Source: Escherichia coli
Lineage (GTDB): Bacteria; Pseudomonadota; Gammaproteobacteria; Enterobacterales; Enterobacteriaceae
Strand: one strand, 5' to 3'
DNA length: 64,000 nt
NCBI RefSeq assembly: GCF_041248615.1
Contig: NZ_CP158426.1
Shown here: positions 33,001 to 42,000 of the stretch, in pieces
Position numbering within the stretch: position 1 is the stretch's first letter
Layout: every line of letters starts with the position of its first letter
Made by a program: the position numbers

Positions 33001-36000
33001 GCGTAGCGCATCAGGCTGCTTTGCGTTTGTCATCAGCCTCTAATTAGTATTCGATCCATGGTTCGCGCTTGCTTTCAGGCAAGGGCTGCTCTAATGCCTG
33101 CATTTGCTCTGCCGAAAGTCCGGTAATCTTTTGTATCCATTCAGGATCTGCCCCATTCTGCAACAACAATCGGAGGAGGCGCTGTTCCCCTTCTTCTTTC
33201 CCTTTCTCCCTCCCTAACAGCCATCCATCATTATGAATTCGCTCTGCAATCGTCATTATTCGCTCCCTTTGTTGTGGCATTCGACGGGTAAGTTCGCTGA
33301 TAAACTCATTAAAACGCGCTTCATCGCCAGTCAGTAAAATGTAATTTAACAGCGCGGTTATCTGGCTGTCATTAGCACACTCTGTAACCAGTAATAGTAC
33401 CAGTTGATCGATAAGCCCCATCAGATCGCGCTGGCGAATATGCTTTTGGATCAACTCCAACAGGGCGACTCTGCGATGCTGCACAATCTCGTCGTCTGGC
33501 ACGACAGTGACATCCACCAGCGGGAACGCTGCGGTATAAAGCTTCCGTGCGGTGGTCGGGTCAGCAAATTCGTCCAGCCAGCACAGGGACCAGGGATAAG
33601 GACTACGGCTACCGTGATAAAACAGCATCGGGATGACCAGCGGTAGCGGCCGGCGTTTATCATGCTCGATATGGCGCTGCATCACCGCCATGGAATAGCG
33701 CATAAGGCGAAACGCCATATGAATATCCTCGCGGCTCTGATGTTCAATCACTACGTAAATATAACCATCACCTTCACGGGTCTTTACCGACCACAGAATA
33801 TCGGAATGTAGCGCCCGCAATTTTTCATCGACAAAGCTGGCGGATTCCAGTTTTAAGCTGTCGAGATCGCACAGTTCACGTAAATCTTTGGGTAAGTGGA
33901 TCTCCATAAAATCCCGCGCGGTGTCAGGGTGCGTGAGAAAGGATTTAAATAATGCGTCATGCGGCGTGCTGGTTGTGAAGTTTGTCATGGCGATCCGTCA
34001 CCTGTAGATAAGATGGCCCGACTGTAGCGACTAACAAAACCATTCTCACCCGGCAATTTCTCGTTCCCCGAGGCGCTTTCCAGGCTATTTTTGTTCCTCT
34101 GCAAACGATACATTTTTCCGGAAACAGGCTCGCGTTTTACATTTCCTGTACCCGGCAGATATTCCCCTTTCCACCGCACTCTTTTGATTAACCGCAAATT
34201 TTAATTACACTTAAGGTGTATATTTTCTATGCAACCCATCAATTCAAGAGGTGTAATGTGCTGATGACTATTTGTAATCGTTATACATTCTGACCTGGAG
34301 TCAGAAGGTATTTCTCTGTCTGTGTGTTCACAGGCAGTGTGGTTGATTACATGAAATTCAGTACATTTGCCCGTCTCGCCTGCCTTTCGTCATTACCGAC
34401 GGTATTGAATTTCGTTTTCCCCGTTGGGGTTCTCCGGACAAGGAGTTGTTTGTTATGCCACGTTTTTTTGCCCGCCATGCCGCCACGCTGTTTTTCCCGA
34501 TGGCGTTGATTTTGTATGATTTTGCCGCGTACCTGTCGACGGATCTGATCCAGCCAGGGATCATTAATGTGGTCCGTGATTTTAATGCCGATGTCAGTCT
34601 GGCCCCTGCTGCCGTCAGTCTCTATCTTGCTGGCGGTATGGCGTTACAGTGGCTGCTGGGGCCGCTTTCCGACAGAATTGGCCGCAGGCCGGTGCTGATT
34701 ACCGGGGCGTTAATTTTTACCCTTGCCTGCGCCGCGACAATGTTCACCACGTCAATGACACAATTTCTTATCGCGCGTGCAATTCAGGGCACCAGTATCT
34801 GTTTTATTGCCACCGTTGGTTATGTCACGGTGCAGGAGGCGTTCGGACAGACAAAAGGGATCAAGTTGATGGCGATTATTACCTCCATCGTACTGATTGC
34901 GCCGATTATCGGCCCGCTTTCCGGCGCAGCTCTGATGCACTTTATGCACTGGAAAGTCCTTTTTGCCATCATTGCGGTTATGGGTTTTATCTCATTTGTT
35001 GGCTTACTGTTGGCGATGCCAGAGACGGTGAAGCGCGGCGCGGTTCCGTTTAGCGCCAAAAGCGTCTTGCGCGATTTTCGTAATGTCTTTTGCAATCGGC
35101 TGTTCCTCTTTGGCGCAGCAACCATCTCTTTAAGCTATATCCCGATGATGAGCTGGGTGGCTGTCTCGCCGGTGATCCTTATCGATGCAGGCGGCTTAAC
35201 AACTTCGCAGTTCGCCTGGACACAGGTTCCGGTGTTCGGCGCGGTGATTGTCGCGAATGCCATCGTGGCGCGTTTCGTTAAAGATCCGACCGAACCGCGG
35301 TTTATCTGGCGTGCCGTCCCCATTCAACTGGTCGGCCTCGCGCTGTTGATTATCGGCAATCTGCTGTCGCCGCACGTCTGGCTGTGGTCGGTGCTGGGCA
35401 CCAGTCTGTATGCTTTCGGGATTGGTTTGATTTTCCCGACCTTATTCCGCTTTACGCTGTTTTCCAATAACTTACCGAAAGGGACCGTCTCCGCATCGCT
35501 AAATATGGTGATCCTGATGGTGATGTCGGTCTCGGTCGAAATCGGCCGCTGGCTGTGGTTTAACGGCGGTCGCTTGCCGTTTCATCTATTAGCCGTTGTG
35601 GCGGGCGTTATCGTCGTTTTCACCCTGGCGGGATTGCTCAATCGCGTGCGCCAACATCAGGCTGCCGAGCTGGCGGAGGAGCGGTGATTTTTGCGCGATC
35701 CTACCGTCAGGCTCTATTCTTAACGTTATGAATAAACTCATTGAACTCAGACGCGCCAAAATGTTGGCGCTCTCTTTACTGCTTATCGCCGCTGCTACCT
35801 TTGTCGTTACGCTGTTTTTGCCACCCAATTTTTGGGTGAGCGGCGTGAAGGCGATTGCTGAAGCGGCGATGGTCGGCGCACTGGCGGACTGGTTTGCGGT
35901 GGTGGCGCTGTTTCGCCGCGTGCCGATTCCGATCATTTCTCGTCATACGGCGATTATTCCGCGTAATAAAGACCGGATTGGCGAAAATCTCGGCCAGTTC

Positions 36001-39000: not shown

Positions 39001-42000
39001 TGGCGCAATTGGCGCAGCGGTAATTGGTCAACGAGTGAGAAAACGCCGATGAAAGAGTTTTTATTTTTATTTCACTCCACGGTCGGCGTCATACAAACCC
39101 GCAAGGCGTTGCAGGCAGCGGGCATGACTTTTCGCGTCAGCGATATTCCCCGTGATTTACGCGGCGGCTGCGGGTTATGCATTTGGCTGACCTGTCCCCC
39201 CGGCGAGGAAATACAATGGGTGATCCCTGGGCAAACCGAAGCGATATATTGCCAGCAGGGCAGCGACTGGCAGTGCGTGGTGCATTACGATGCAGAAGCG
39301 TCAACCAGGCAATAAGATCTTTAAATATACCAACCGGATAATTGGCTGCGCATAATCCTGCATGAAGGAAGTTGTATTAAATATCTCACCTGCCATGAAA
39401 TATTTCCCATCCACAAAATGAGCGATTTTTGATAGCACCTTACTATTTTACGTCTAAAATACAAAATGCATTTTATTATACTTAAATCCATAATTATGCA
39501 TAGAGAAATAAAATGATTACCGGGTGAGATAATGATAAAAGATAAGTTTCTGTGCGAAGCTTATCTTTACCCATCCCCCTGATTATTTTAGATTTAGAAG
39601 AACATTTCACAATTCAAGGATAAAAATATGGGCTCCCTAAACATATACCAGGATATTTTCCCAACACTCGGCATGTATTCGGGACTAAAAGCTTGTCATG
39701 AAAAAAACAACCAACCATTTGATATTAACACGGAAATTGAAACCATACAAAAACAAATTAATTATGATATAAATCATTTGAATGATGGTTTGATTAAGCG
39801 TGTACTGAATGTTTTTATTCACCTTATCTCTAATCCCGACAATCTCGAATTAACCTTAAATCGATATTCATCAACAACAGAACAAATCATCGCCAAAACC
39901 AAAAGAAATGGTTTAAATGAGTTTGAAATTAACGATCTAAAAATAATATTTAATCGACAAGATGATAATGAAAGCGTATTAACTGTTAACCACAAAGATA
40001 TAAGTCATAGTTGCAATGTTAAAACCGCGCAACTGCAGCAGTTTATTAAAATAATGGAACAAAAAGCGCAACTACCAATCTATATTGACAAGAACAATTT
40101 GAAAGAGAGTATTTTCTCTGTTTTGCACAATGACCCACAACACGTAGATAAAGATCAACACCTTCCCTGTGATAAGTTTTTAAAATATGCCTGCAAAAGT
40201 TCAAATTCATTTGAAGTGAAATTAGATGCCACTCATCAATATCAACACCTGAATAACTTCATGATTTCTTTTGACCCAGTAGAAAATCAATTAACAATAC
40301 AGGATAATAATAACAAGACTGAAACTTTCTCGTTTACAAACTTACAATGGGAAAATTTGCTGCAACACTATAGAGAAAACCACCAACAGCCAAATATAGC
40401 AGGATCACGAAATATCACGGATAATAGAGATAAAATTAAAAATACAATATCCACCTCTGAAATTATTGAGTGCGCCTCTCCTGAAATAAGAAGTAGCGTC
40501 CTGAACGATCTTTATAGCATTGCTAATTTCCTCCCGGACAATAATCTGACCCCAAATGAGAGCTGGAAAAGGTTTTGTAACACATGCGAGCGCTTTTACG
40601 TTGCTCAGAAGAGTATCACTGGAGATAAGAGTGAACGTCTTACGCGAAAACTCTCTATCTCTGATGCAGGAATTACAATGACCTTCACGATAGGTGATGT
40701 TGTCATCAATACTATTAGCACTGCTATTCCTGAAGATTCAACGGGGCAACGGTGTATCGAAGGGTTGAATTTAGCGGGAATGGATTTAACCGGCATAGAC
40801 TTGTCTAAAATGGTTCTAAGGAATGTCAATTTTAATGGCAGCATTCTTAGAAATGCGGATTTCACCGGTACGATCTGTGAAGGCGTGGATTTTACCGATT
40901 GTGATCTCCGTTATGCAACCTTTATTGACGCCTCATTAGAAAAAATCGATTTTCGTAAAGTTCGTCACTTGCTTAATATAAATTTTACAAATGCAAATCT
41001 ACGGAACAGTAACTTCAGCGGAAAAGTTCTCACTGGCGTTAATTTTACTGGAAGTGACCTTAGTAACGCTTATCTTGCACACATAGATTTCACAAAAGTG
41101 ATTTTCTTTCCGTCATTAATTATTGGAGCAGTATTTGATTATTCCAATCTATCAGAGAAAAATCTTTCAGACAAAGATCTTACTAATATTAGCTGCATGT
41201 TTACCAATTTTACAAACGCTAATTTAGCAAAATGCAAACTCTTTAATACAAACTTTTCGGCTGCAAAATTTGACAATACTAATTTCACTGGTACAAAAGG
41301 TTCTAATATTCTGTTTAACCATGCATGGTTGTTCAATACGATATTTATAGATACGATTTTTAAAAATGCCTGTTTTTTCAATGCCAAAGTGAATAATGTT
41401 TCTCTTAAGAAAGCATATATTTACAATGATAATATCGATAAAAAAGCCAATGACAGTACCGAGAAACAACCCAGTGACAGTATCGAGAAACAAGCCAATG
41501 ACAGTACCGATAAACAAGCCAAGAACAGTACCGAGCAACAGGACAGTACCAGTTTTAATCAAGCCCGTTTAAAGAAAGAAGTGAATAGCAGTTTTTCCAT
41601 TCCGGGTTTAACGTCTTATCAGCCAACTTATATAGTTGACGAATAGTTCAATAATCACCCAAACAGAGTGAGTATGGCAGAGGATATAAATTGCTAACCG
41701 CCTCATCTATCATTCATGGATGAGGCGCATTTATCAGTCGATGTAAGCTGAAAATGTTCCGCCATCCAGAGACAAACGCCGCAACTCCCCTGCGGCGTTT
41801 ACTATTTCATCGCCCGCGTTAAGAATTCATTAAGCTTCATCCGTATACTCCTTATCTGTCGCACTGAATTTGACGAGAAAAAAAGCAATAATAAGGAGCA
41901 ACAAGTTGAAAAAGCGCATCACCTTTATCGTTTTTCTTTGCGCCATCGTGGCAGTGAGCCTGTTTTTTGTGCAATCCTGCGTCCGTAAAAGCCAGCATGT

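Follow-up and report, generated by a model that had tools for sequence, protein, structure and literature searches.

The yjiM–yjiL–ytiA genes of Escherichia coli: a conserved cassette combining a predicted double-cubane-cluster reductase with a putative selenium/sulfur carrier

Genes and regulatory features of the locus

The window analysed here is a stretch of 64,000 nt from the E. coli contig NZ_CP158426.1. Within it, yjiN (35728–37008, 426 aa), yjiM (37124–38275, 383 aa), yjiL (38285–39052, 255 aa) and ytiA (39049–39315, 88 aa; 85 aa in K-12) follow one another on the plus strand, in the neighbourhood of mdtM, a pentapeptide-repeat gene, yjiK and yjiJ. The window showed 100% identity to E. 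coli NZ_LT599825.1, and among 5426 complete genomes of the species 5386 contain the region, with the same four CDSs annotated. The small ORF corresponds to K-12 ytiA (b4715), and all four genes are already part of the RefSeq annotation, so that the genes themselves are not new. ORF listing and sequence reads matched the coordinates and layout of a first-pass annotation to the base, and Pfam and NCBIfam searches bore out its gene identities (DUF445, HGD-D/NF040772, BcrAD_BadFG/TIGR00241 and PF11823, respectively). The yjiM start was read as GGAAGGA-N5-ATG. yjiL begins with a GTG codon 5 nt 3' of TAAGGAG, 9 nt beyond the yjiM stop, and the coupling of ytiA to yjiL described in the first-pass annotation was confirmed at 39049–39052, where an ATGA lets the ytiA ATG share bases with the yjiL TGA.

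On the NF040772 equivalog model for double-cubane-cluster proteins (DCCPs), YjiM scored 529.3 bits against a cut-off of 350, and its nearest solved structure in a PDB search was DCCP 6ENO/7YYL (E 1.4e-74). DCCPs are ATP-consuming reductases characterized by seven conserved cysteines, six of them cluster ligands and one near the cluster, and by a gene for a cognate reductase (DCCP-R). YjiM cysteines 40, 59, 78, 108, 273, 302 and 335 occupied invariant or ≥90% conserved columns in a 42-sequence alignment and aligned to cysteines of 6ENO, and yjiL lies directly 3' of yjiM. The YjiM spacing (C-X18-C-X18-C-X29-C-X164-C-X28-C-X32-C) deviates from the published DCCP spacers (19/18–19/29/166–170/32–34/32 versus 18/18/29/164/28/32), and the published regular expression consequently has no literal match. 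yjiM is under strong constraint (dN/dS 0.03–0.07). Published work already lists YjiM among putative DCCPs, and its profile score and ligands place it in this family as the proposed catalytic component, an oxygen-sensitive reductase in which an [8Fe-9S] double-cubane cluster is probably assembled.

The system most similar to the E. coli pair is the DCCP/DCCP-R of Carboxydothermus hydrogenoformans (CHY_0487/CHY_0488; 6ENO, 7YYL), for which ATP-driven electron transfer from DCCP-R to DCCP is established (PMC9351452). YjiM shares with that DCCP its NF040772 membership, the seven cysteines and an adjoining ASKHA ATPase with two cluster cysteines; the single type of catalytic subunit implies a YjiM homodimer, as in the C. 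hydrogenoformans protein (DCCP_Ch). In contrast to DCCP_Ch, YjiM is a short 'class II' protein that aligns without the first ~36 residues, which close the substrate channel, has divergent cysteine spacing, and is encoded beside a coupled DUF3343 gene.

YjiL scored 363.5 bits on TIGR00241 (cut-off 125.4). It carries the ASKHA N-terminal phosphate motif GIDSGSTATKG, and two motifs, NDKCAAGTGRF (C122) and CTVFAESE (C160), read exactly as in HgdC. The dN/dS of yjiL is 0.07–0.18. With both cluster cysteine motifs in place, YjiL can be assigned as an ATPase of the ASKHA fold whose [4Fe-4S] site bridges the subunits, and as the predicted ATP-dependent reductase (DCCP-R, 'archerase') for YjiM, in keeping with its initial description as an ASKHA-type activating ATPase.

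YtiA matched PF11823 (DUF3343) with 49.2 bits against a gathering cut-off of 25, and its 88 aa fall inside the family size of 80–100 aa. Residues F8, C41 and G42 were invariant from Enterobacterales to Firmicutes (C41–G42 in 30 sequences), with C41 lying in a GCG motif, and the AF2 model (pLDDT 88) has a ferredoxin-like fold. The C-terminal ~27 residues are weakly conserved, and truncated variants occur in databases. Orthologues with 54–98% identity were found in Escherichia, Citrobacter, Klebsiella, Raoultella, Kosakonia, Phytobacter and Atlantibacter, and further orthologues in Cedecea and Hafnia, with at least 120 orthologue clusters overall. The dN/dS ratio was 0.12–0.34 where dS was unsaturated and 0.08–0.25 for codons 1–50; the overlap with yjiL amounts to only 4 nt, so the conservation of ytiA is independent of that gene. 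Purifying selection, conservation across Enterobacterales and retention of the invariant cysteine indicate that ytiA is a real gene and not a chance ORF. Lin et al. (2015) proposed DUF3343 as a 'putative Se/S carrier' family with a highly conserved cysteine. YtiA, above the Pfam threshold and with the family cysteine kept, is by this label a putative sulfur or selenium carrier.

Upstream of yjiM we identified a putative FNR box, GCGAGAGAGATCAA (37037–37050, plus strand), which matches TTGATnnnnATCAA at 7/10 positions and has its centre ~42.5 nt before the inferred start of transcription. Escherichia, Superficieibacter and Citrobacter all keep its ATCAA half-site ahead of yjiM, where Cedecea has ATCAC. 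Although the genes upstream differ, the whole box matches at 9/10 positions in Citrobacter (L006) and at 8/10 in Cedecea (L007). A putative -10 hexamer recognized by alignment, AATAAT (37074–37079, plus strand; TATAAT in other genera), sits 23 nt downstream of the box. A generic promoter scan made no call at this -10 for want of a -35, whose absence is expected of a promoter that depends on an activator. yjiM appears in an FNR regulon listing and is induced at O2 limitation, consistent with yjiM–yjiL–ytiA being under anaerobic control from an FNR-type promoter of their own. The 5'-UTR also contains a hairpin, CCCGT-GGT-ACGGG (37100–37112, plus strand), which abuts the Shine–Dalgarno sequence GGAAGGA (37112–37118). 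It was present in 6/6 enterobacterial sequences, with a T-A to G-C double change in Hafnia that keeps the pairing, and the predicted fold of 37085–37126 includes it (-9.5 kcal/mol). The hairpin had no Rfam match.

Conservation of the yjiM–yjiL–ytiA cassette

We surveyed the genes within 8 kb of 80 YjiM-like loci, 74 of them non-enterobacterial. The order yjiM–yjiL–ytiA, with stop and start codons overlapping or abutting, was found in Escherichia, Superficieibacter, Citrobacter, Cedecea and Hafnia, and ytiA overlapped or abutted the yjiL stop in 5/5 other enterobacterial genera sampled. The Hafnia triad lies between rapA–rluA and djlA–lptD, and that of Cedecea adjoins an EamA transporter gene, in both cases without yjiN. 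The gene-neighbourhood comparison proposed in the first-pass annotation accordingly gives yjiM–yjiL–ytiA as the conserved unit, with yjiN outside it. That annotation had also suspected the small ORF of being a functional partner, a suspicion it tied to conservation and translation of the ORF; the orthologues across Enterobacterales and the coupling to yjiL lend it support.

A DUF3343 gene was present in 23/80 loci and absent within 8 kb in the other 57, so it is either not obligatory or encoded elsewhere. Where present, the nearest copy lay within 2 kb of the DCCP/activase gene in 22/23 loci and within 200 nt in 16/23; binomial P values against uniform placement were ~1e-12 and ~3e-16, respectively, and overstate the significance since the loci are not phylogenetically independent. 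In eight loci, including all Enterobacterales, DUF3343 accompanied the DCCP/activase genes with no lyase gene. The proposal of Lin et al. rests on the proximity of DUF3343 to YedF and Sec lyase, and this lyase-independent coupling appears there in STRING table entries only, undiscussed.

Selenium-gene context and a proposed role

A TIGR01977/SclA-like lyase gene was found in 19/80 loci (15 with DUF3343) and YedF (TIGR03527) in 12/80 (10 with DUF3343), alongside SelD in five, YqeB in four and corrinoid methyl-selenide-type clusters in ten. Loci with DUF3343 usually encode an SclA-type selenocysteine lyase/cysteine desulfurase and YedF, and sometimes SelD. The DCCP–activase–DUF3343 trio of Firmicutes is embedded with all three, and such clusters, with a small single-Cys protein gene beside YedF and SelD, resemble the E. 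faecalis SclA–YedF–SelD selenium locus; neither lyase, YedF nor SelD is encoded next to the E. coli cassette. For Slackia, STRING connects DUF3343 with Sec lyase, YedF and the activase (PMC5322559). According to the Haft preprint, 955 of 970 DCCPs come from genomes that are SelD-positive. Lin et al. recognized no DUF3343 subfamily specific to selenium, and members are also present in organisms that are SelD-negative.

We propose that yjiM–yjiL–ytiA is an FNR-controlled three-gene cassette for the ATP-driven reduction of a carrier-bound selenium or sulfur species, a reading to which we give a probability of roughly 0.55. The analysis established the family memberships, conserved ligands, gene coupling, cassette structure, neighbourhood statistics and promoter conservation; the chemistry is more conjectural. 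A YjiL homodimer with its bridging [4Fe-4S] cluster would hydrolyse ATP to drive electrons of low potential into the [8Fe-9S] cluster of YjiM, and the reduced double-cubane cluster would then reduce the substrate. As third component, YtiA would act as a thiol carrier, either offering the reductase a Se/S species on C41 or receiving one from it, presumably in physical contact with YjiM/YjiL. From the position of the Firmicutes trio beside the SclA-type lyase, YedF and SelD, we infer that the cassette may mobilize selenium, for example by converting carrier-bound Se(0) or perselenide to selenide for SelD, and it would do so without oxygen, the condition under which the selenoprotein formate dehydrogenases of E. 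coli are produced.

Counting against this mechanism, reduction of a persulfide or perselenide has no obvious need for an ATP-boosted electron of very low potential. Classical screens for sel mutants of E. coli are not known to have yielded genes other than selA–D, so any role of the cassette in selenium metabolism must be conditional. A more specific and tentative version, which we regard as possible but rather improbable, is that the cassette supplies a missing step in selenide delivery. Selenium released by a Sec lyase or cysteine desulfurase would rest on YtiA Cys41 in the form of a perselenide or Se(0) adduct. With its open channel, the class II DCCP would convert it to selenide using ATP-boosted electrons, and SelD would take the product. 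If true, this would be the first physiological substrate for DCCPs, and a protein-bound one rather than a small molecule.

The neighbourhood data can also be read in terms of cofactor assembly. YtiA would then be a maturation factor delivering the bridging sulfide (or selenide) that fuses two cubanes into the YjiM double-cubane cluster, with the lyase, YedF and SelD neighbours in Firmicutes as the supply line. DUF3343 usually lies directly downstream of an SclA/cysteine-desulfurase-type gene, an arrangement of a small single-Cys protein gene directly 3' of a class-V PLP lyase that resembles the SufS–SufE, CsdA–CsdE and IscS–TusA relays; by analogy, this position is typical of the persulfide acceptors SufE, CsdE and TusA. 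DCCPs and SelD co-occur strongly, and the Haft preprint raises a selenium-containing cluster as a formal possibility. We nevertheless consider a maturation role unlikely, given the 57/80 DCCP loci without a nearby DUF3343 gene and the solved DCCP cluster, which is [8Fe-9S] with a μ2-sulfide and not selenide. Expression of DCCP_Ch in E. coli as a heterologous host also gave a protein with the cluster in place, which is weak evidence on this point since E. coli itself carries ytiA.

Alternative assignments of the locus

The first-pass annotation had described YjiM and YjiL as a dehydratase-like radical enzyme pair, which corresponds to an unusual 2-hydroxyacyl-CoA dehydratase, or another enzyme that works on CoA esters, with YtiA and YjiN as accessory partners and a single ATP-driven electron acting catalytically through ketyl-radical chemistry. 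There is genuine kinship: HgdAB/HgdC, HadBC/HadI and the class I benzoyl-CoA reductases (Bzd/Bcr/Mbd) share the HGD-D fold and a homologous electron-injecting ATPase, YjiM is in Pfam HGD-D and distantly homologous to HadC and BzdN subunits, and YjiL matches the activators 1HUX (9e-53) and 4EHT (2e-52) slightly better than DCCP-R (7YYL_E, 7e-47). Jeoung et al. noted that YjiM is without the N-terminal channel-closing helices of DCCP_Ch, which makes a CoA ester or other large substrate possible. However, YjiM scored only 92.6 bits on the HadC model (cut-off 700) and 20.9 on HadB (cut-off 750), and was far under the cut-off on every dehydratase and benzoyl-CoA reductase model in the NCBIfam profile search. 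The dehydratases and benzoyl-CoA reductases turn over CoA thioesters as alpha/beta heteromers, whereas yjiM is the single HGD-D gene in the window neighbourhood, with no second subunit gene nearby and hence no such pair. CoA-transferase, acyl-CoA and 2-hydroxyacid dehydrogenase genes were absent from the window neighbourhood, and these families were not among the recurrent neighbours across the 80 loci. Together with the complete seven-Cys pattern, the high NF040772 score and 6ENO as best relative, the low HadB and HadC scores make dehydratase or radical-pair chemistry less likely, and YjiM is better placed as a DCCP than as a classical 2-hydroxyacyl-CoA dehydratase. We judge the CoA-ester reading distinctly unlikely.

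A broader grouping would make mdtM–yjiN–yjiM–yjiL–ytiA one membrane-associated system in which the cytoplasmic reductase processes a transported compound; the influence reported for the 'yjiL–mdtM cluster' on proline-rich antimicrobial peptide (PrAMP) uptake would be one such case. All five genes point in the same direction, with intergenic gaps of 40 and 115 nt, and reviews cite MdtM/YjiL as an accessory PrAMP uptake route, but comparative data make this grouping highly improbable. YjiN, a DUF445 membrane protein (PF04286, 401 bits against a cut-off of 33.8) with no NCBIfam match and no PDB relative, has a homologue adjoining the YjiM-like gene in only 4/80 loci (L003–L006; Escherichia, Superficieibacter and Citrobacter), and none was found near the triad in Cedecea, Hafnia or any of the 74 non-enterobacterial loci. 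The yjiN–yjiM gap varies from 115 to ~570 nt, and yjiM has its own conserved promoter-like region. In E. albertii (L003) and in L004 the interval from rpnD to yjiN contains no mdtM, and in Citrobacter mdtM and yjiN are 3.7 kb apart. YjiN and MdtM are lineage-specific neighbours outside the conserved cassette, and the earlier suggestion that the DUF445 protein is a functional partner is not upheld.

Lastly, that the 88-codon ORF is non-functional or untranslated and kept merely through its overlap with the end of yjiL is scarcely credible: the searchable literature gave no direct translation evidence for YtiA, and the poorly conserved last ~27 residues and truncated database variants fit such a view, but they are set against the Pfam match, the invariant cysteine, dN/dS well below 1, the confident AF2 model and homologues at the same position in distant phyla.

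Organization of the yjiM locus

The interval 35728–39315 is exactly covered by four genes that read in the same direction on the + strand, as judged from the ORF listing and from the sequence itself: yjiN (35728–37008, 426 aa), yjiM (37124–38275, 383 aa), yjiL (38285–39052, 255 aa) and an 88-codon ORF (39049–39315). yjiM begins 115 nt 3′ of yjiN in the start context GGAAGGA-N5-ATG, the GTG start of yjiL lies 5 nt past a TAAGGAG and 9 nt past the yjiM stop, and the ATG of the small ORF overlaps the yjiL TGA as ATGA, an arrangement that the first-pass annotation had described correctly. 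The window is E. coli chromosomal DNA; its region 35600–39500 has a 100% match in NZ_LT599825.1 and is carried by 5386 of 5426 complete E. coli genomes. All four genes are already annotated in RefSeq, which lists the small ORF as 'DUF3343 domain-containing protein' or 'putative Se/S carrier protein' and yjiM as 'double-cubane-cluster-containing anaerobic reductase'; the K-12 counterpart of the small ORF is ytiA (b4715, 85 aa), the name used here. None of the genes is thus new, and RefSeq and the literature already hold their family assignments as well as the labelling of YjiM as a double-cubane-cluster protein (DCCP).

A conserved cassette of a DCCP, its reductase and a DUF3343 protein

YjiM scored 529 bits against the NCBIfam equivalog NF040772 (double_cubane; cut-off 350), and its nearest solved structure is the Carboxydothermus hydrogenoformans DCCP (6ENO/7YYL, E 1.4e-74), relative to which YjiM starts ~36 residues later. 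Alignment with 41 full-length homologues (30–49% identity) identified C40, C59, C78, C108, C273, C302 and C335 as invariant or nearly invariant, and a seven-cysteine signature is the published description of DCCPs. The published regular expression has no literal match in YjiM, because the spacers are a few residues shorter than in that pattern; as the alignment places all seven cysteines, we retained YjiM as a DCCP. Against TIGR00241 (cut-off 125), YjiL reached 363 bits; it can be aligned from end to end with HgdC (1HUX), HadI (4EHT) and the ATP-dependent DCCP reductase DCCP-R (7YYL_E), and has intact cluster-cysteine motifs (NDKCAAGTGRF and CTVFAESE). YtiA matched PF11823 (DUF3343) at 49 bits, against a Pfam gathering score of 25. 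Its first ~45 residues are strongly conserved, and C41-G42 is invariant, even after the addition of 19 Firmicute homologues at 13–25% identity; Cys41 is the 'highly conserved Cys' of the DUF3343 family (Lin et al.).

A YjiM-like profile search of one-genome-per-species contigs yielded 80 loci (6 from Enterobacterales and 74, mostly from Firmicutes, at 49–66% identity), in which ORFs were called and then queried with YjiL and YjiN as well as with a YtiA profile obtained by iteration. An activase was encoded within 8 kb of the YjiM-like gene at 53/80 loci, and a DUF3343 protein at 23/80. At 22 of these 23 loci, the distance from the nearest DUF3343 gene to a DCCP or activase gene was no more than 2 kb, and at 16 it was no more than 200 nt; uniform placement in the flanks gives P ~1e-12 and 3e-16, respectively, values inflated by some related loci. 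The order yjiM-yjiL-ytiA, with overlapping or abutting stops and starts, was found in each of the five enterobacterial genera for which the sequence extended far enough. These data show a conserved cassette, with translational coupling, of a DCCP, its ATP-dependent reductase and a single-cysteine DUF3343 protein; we regard the family assignments and the cassette as near certain.

Fusions of DCCP and activase were present among the long YjiM homologues (P0147, P0163, P0214 and P0245). No DCCP-DUF3343 fusion was found among them, the only other type being a YjiM-like DCCP domain with a C-terminal PucR-type helix-turn-helix (P0122, 722 aa; 7151–9319 of locus L076 and 5309–7450 of L077, both Dorea MAGs), which suggests a DCCP-derived sensor or regulator.

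Selenium genes neighbour the cassette in other bacteria

To name recurrent neighbours, all flanking ORFs of the 80 loci were clustered. One of these, present at 19 loci (15 with DUF3343), was a class-V PLP enzyme that belongs to TIGR01977 (431 bits against a cut-off of 377) and has the selenocysteine lyase SclA as its closest named relative. YedF (TIGR03527) occurred at 12 loci (10 with DUF3343), SelD at 5 (4 with DUF3343), YqeB at 4, XdhC-like maturation factors at 6 (3 with DUF3343), and corrinoid methyltransferase sets (URO-D-like, B12-binding and RACo) at 10 (3 with DUF3343). Typical gene orders were DCCP-activase-lyase-DUF3343-YedF at locus L075, YedF-lyase-DUF3343-DCCP-activase at L028, and lyase-DUF3343-activase-DCCP beside SelD-YedF-DUF3343-lyase at L063. 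At eight loci (L050, L061, L081 and five from Enterobacterales), DUF3343 was coupled to the DCCP or activase gene without any lyase. At five loci (L021, L027, L050, L061 and L081), DUF3343 lay directly 3′ of an additional DCCP paralogue, longer than the first, which likewise exceeded the NF040772 cut-off; many Firmicute loci have two such adjoining paralogues, one short and YjiM-like and one of 419–453 aa with an N-terminal extension.

The selenium associations of DCCPs and of DUF3343 have each been proposed before, separately. For Slackia, Lin et al. list the activase, with no discussion of the link, among the proteins to which STRING connects DUF3343, YedE and YedF; Haft found 955 of 970 DCCPs in SelD-positive genomes; the mlp-cluster preprint provisionally linked DCCP to selenium; and the definitions of TIGR01977 and TIGR03527 derive from the E. 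faecalis selD locus. The context described here agrees with these hints. What is new is that the coupling of DUF3343 to DCCP and activase holds even without a lyase, and that the E. coli DCCP subfamily is the one embedded in selenium loci.

A possible function and its alternatives

DCCPs are nitrogenase-like, ATP-driven reductases of very low potential, and structures of the Carboxydothermus pair have established how DCCP-R uses ATP hydrolysis to push electrons into the double cubane. By homology, YjiL would likewise use ATP to deliver low-potential electrons to the double-cubane cluster of YjiM. Gene context points to YtiA as a putative thiol carrier for the selenium (or sulfur) species that the reductase would process. 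In the simplest scheme, a perselenide or Se(0) adduct on Cys41 of YtiA would be reduced to selenide for SelD; a protein-bound substrate would fit the open channel that class II DCCPs have. We favour a cassette that performs ATP-driven reduction of a carrier-bound selenium or sulfur species (probability roughly 0.55); for the selenium/sulfur chemistry itself, we would give about even odds at best. Against this chemistry, the E. coli cassette has no adjoining lyase, YedF or SelD, and most DCCP genes have no DUF3343 nearby. Additionally, we know of no obvious thermodynamic need for ATP-boosted electrons in such a reaction, and to our knowledge the classical sel screens yielded only selA–D. E. coli offers a minimal, genetically tractable form of a trio that elsewhere sits in selenium-utilization clusters, and both the physiological substrate of a DCCP and a selenide route to SelD are therefore directly testable in a model organism.

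An alternative that we consider unlikely is that YtiA acts as a maturation factor for the bridging atom of the cluster. Somewhat more doubtful is a CoA-ester dehydratase or reductase, in line with the first-pass annotation of yjiM as a dehydratase. YjiM does resemble BzdN, MbdN and a HadC-type beta subunit, but much more weakly (4e-19 to 6e-13) than it resembles DCCP, and the HadC, HadB and benzoyl-CoA reductase subunit models gave just 21–93 bits against cut-offs of 420–750. Just one HGD-D gene is present, and the locus therefore lacks the alpha/beta architecture of true 2-hydroxyacyl-CoA dehydratases. The name 'dehydratase' is thus inappropriate for yjiM.

yjiN and mdtM are lineage-specific neighbours

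Both the small ORF and the DUF445 protein YjiN had been suggested as functional partners of YjiM and YjiL. ytiA is indeed kept with yjiM-yjiL across genera, but a YjiN homologue was found within 8 kb at only 4/80 loci (two Escherichia, Superficieibacter and Citrobacter), and YjiN had neither a PDB relative nor an NCBIfam model. In Hafnia paralvei (L008, 7098–11208), the triad lies between rapA-rluA and djlA-lptD without yjiN; these flanking housekeeping genes are otherwise contiguous. In Cedecea neteri (L007, 6969–11530), also without yjiN, an EamA transporter precedes the triad and yscW-like/tesB/amtB follow it. The closest non-enterobacterial relatives of YjiM are from Firmicutes (60–66% identity) and, together with the varied contexts, this suggests that yjiM-yjiL-ytiA is a horizontally mobile cassette.

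In the window, mdtM adjoins yjiN, and a five-gene, membrane-linked system including MdtM and YjiN could be envisaged. However, E. albertii (L003, 5470–7881) and a second Escherichia genome (L004, 4662–7035) have no mdtM between rpnD and yjiN, and in Citrobacter youngae (L006, 1051–7427) a distance of 3.7 kb separates mdtM from yjiN; the mdtM-yjiN junction is therefore lineage-specific, and such a system is very improbable. Since the triad keeps its order and yjiN and mdtM are dispensable, the conserved unit is a triad rather than a tetrad, a new result; for annotation, ytiA groups with yjiML and yjiN does not. The window's rpnD (33044–33988, − strand), encoding an Rpn family recombination-promoting nuclease (PF04754), is intact at 314 aa and is annotated as a pseudogene in K-12.

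Conservation and allelic variation of ytiA

No translation evidence for E. coli YtiA was found in the searchable literature; yet a spurious ORF is scarcely credible, given orthologue clusters at 54–98% identity in Escherichia, Citrobacter, Klebsiella, Raoultella, Kosakonia, Phytobacter and Atlantibacter, and dN/dS values, from comparisons with unsaturated dS, of 0.12–0.34 for the whole gene and 0.08–0.25 for codons 1–50 (yjiL, 0.07–0.18; yjiM, 0.03–0.07).

An allele breakpoint lies within ytiA (39049–39315) at about 39232. Compared with K-12 there is 1 difference in nt 1–183 and 25/66 in nt 184–249; this makes the C-terminal ~27 residues specific to the allele and puts the border of a variable island inside the ytiA 3′ end. 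This low-GC island (about 31–38%; about 39316–41870) contains a 672-aa pentapeptide-repeat ORF (39628–41646, + strand) between ytiA and yjiK, which is missing from K-12, is carried by 637/5426 complete E. coli genomes, and shows just sub-threshold resemblance to models of the T3SS effectors PipB2, PipB and SopA.

A predicted anaerobic promoter upstream of yjiM

yjiM has been cited as an FNR-regulon gene, and in O157:H7 it is upregulated together with other anaerobic genes at oxygen limitation. An FNR-consensus scan of the yjiN-yjiM spacer gave no site of at least 8/10, generic sigma-70 promoter and terminator scans did not exceed shuffled expectation either around yjiM or 3′ of ytiA, and an Rfam scan of 33900–42000 gave no match. 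Cross-genus conservation is the support for a candidate FNR-like box at 37037–37050 (7/10 in E. coli, 9/10 in Citrobacter and 8/10 in Cedecea). An ATCAA half-site (ATCAC in Cedecea), a −10 hexamer and a hairpin are common to Escherichia, Superficieibacter, Citrobacter and Cedecea, although the upstream genes differ. The putative −10 hexamer (37074–37079) lies 23 nt 3′ of the box, which would therefore be centred near −42.5, a position shared with class II FNR promoters. This conservation and the predicted promoter support an autonomous, probably anaerobically induced yjiM-yjiL-ytiA transcription unit, and the conserved, predicted FNR-type upstream region belonging to the cassette is new here. 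The 5′-UTR hairpin, CCCGTGGTACGGG (37100–37112; window 37100–37118), abuts the yjiM Shine–Dalgarno sequence. Six enterobacterial genera have this hairpin, which may act in translation or stability, and in Hafnia a T-A to G-C double change preserves its pairing.
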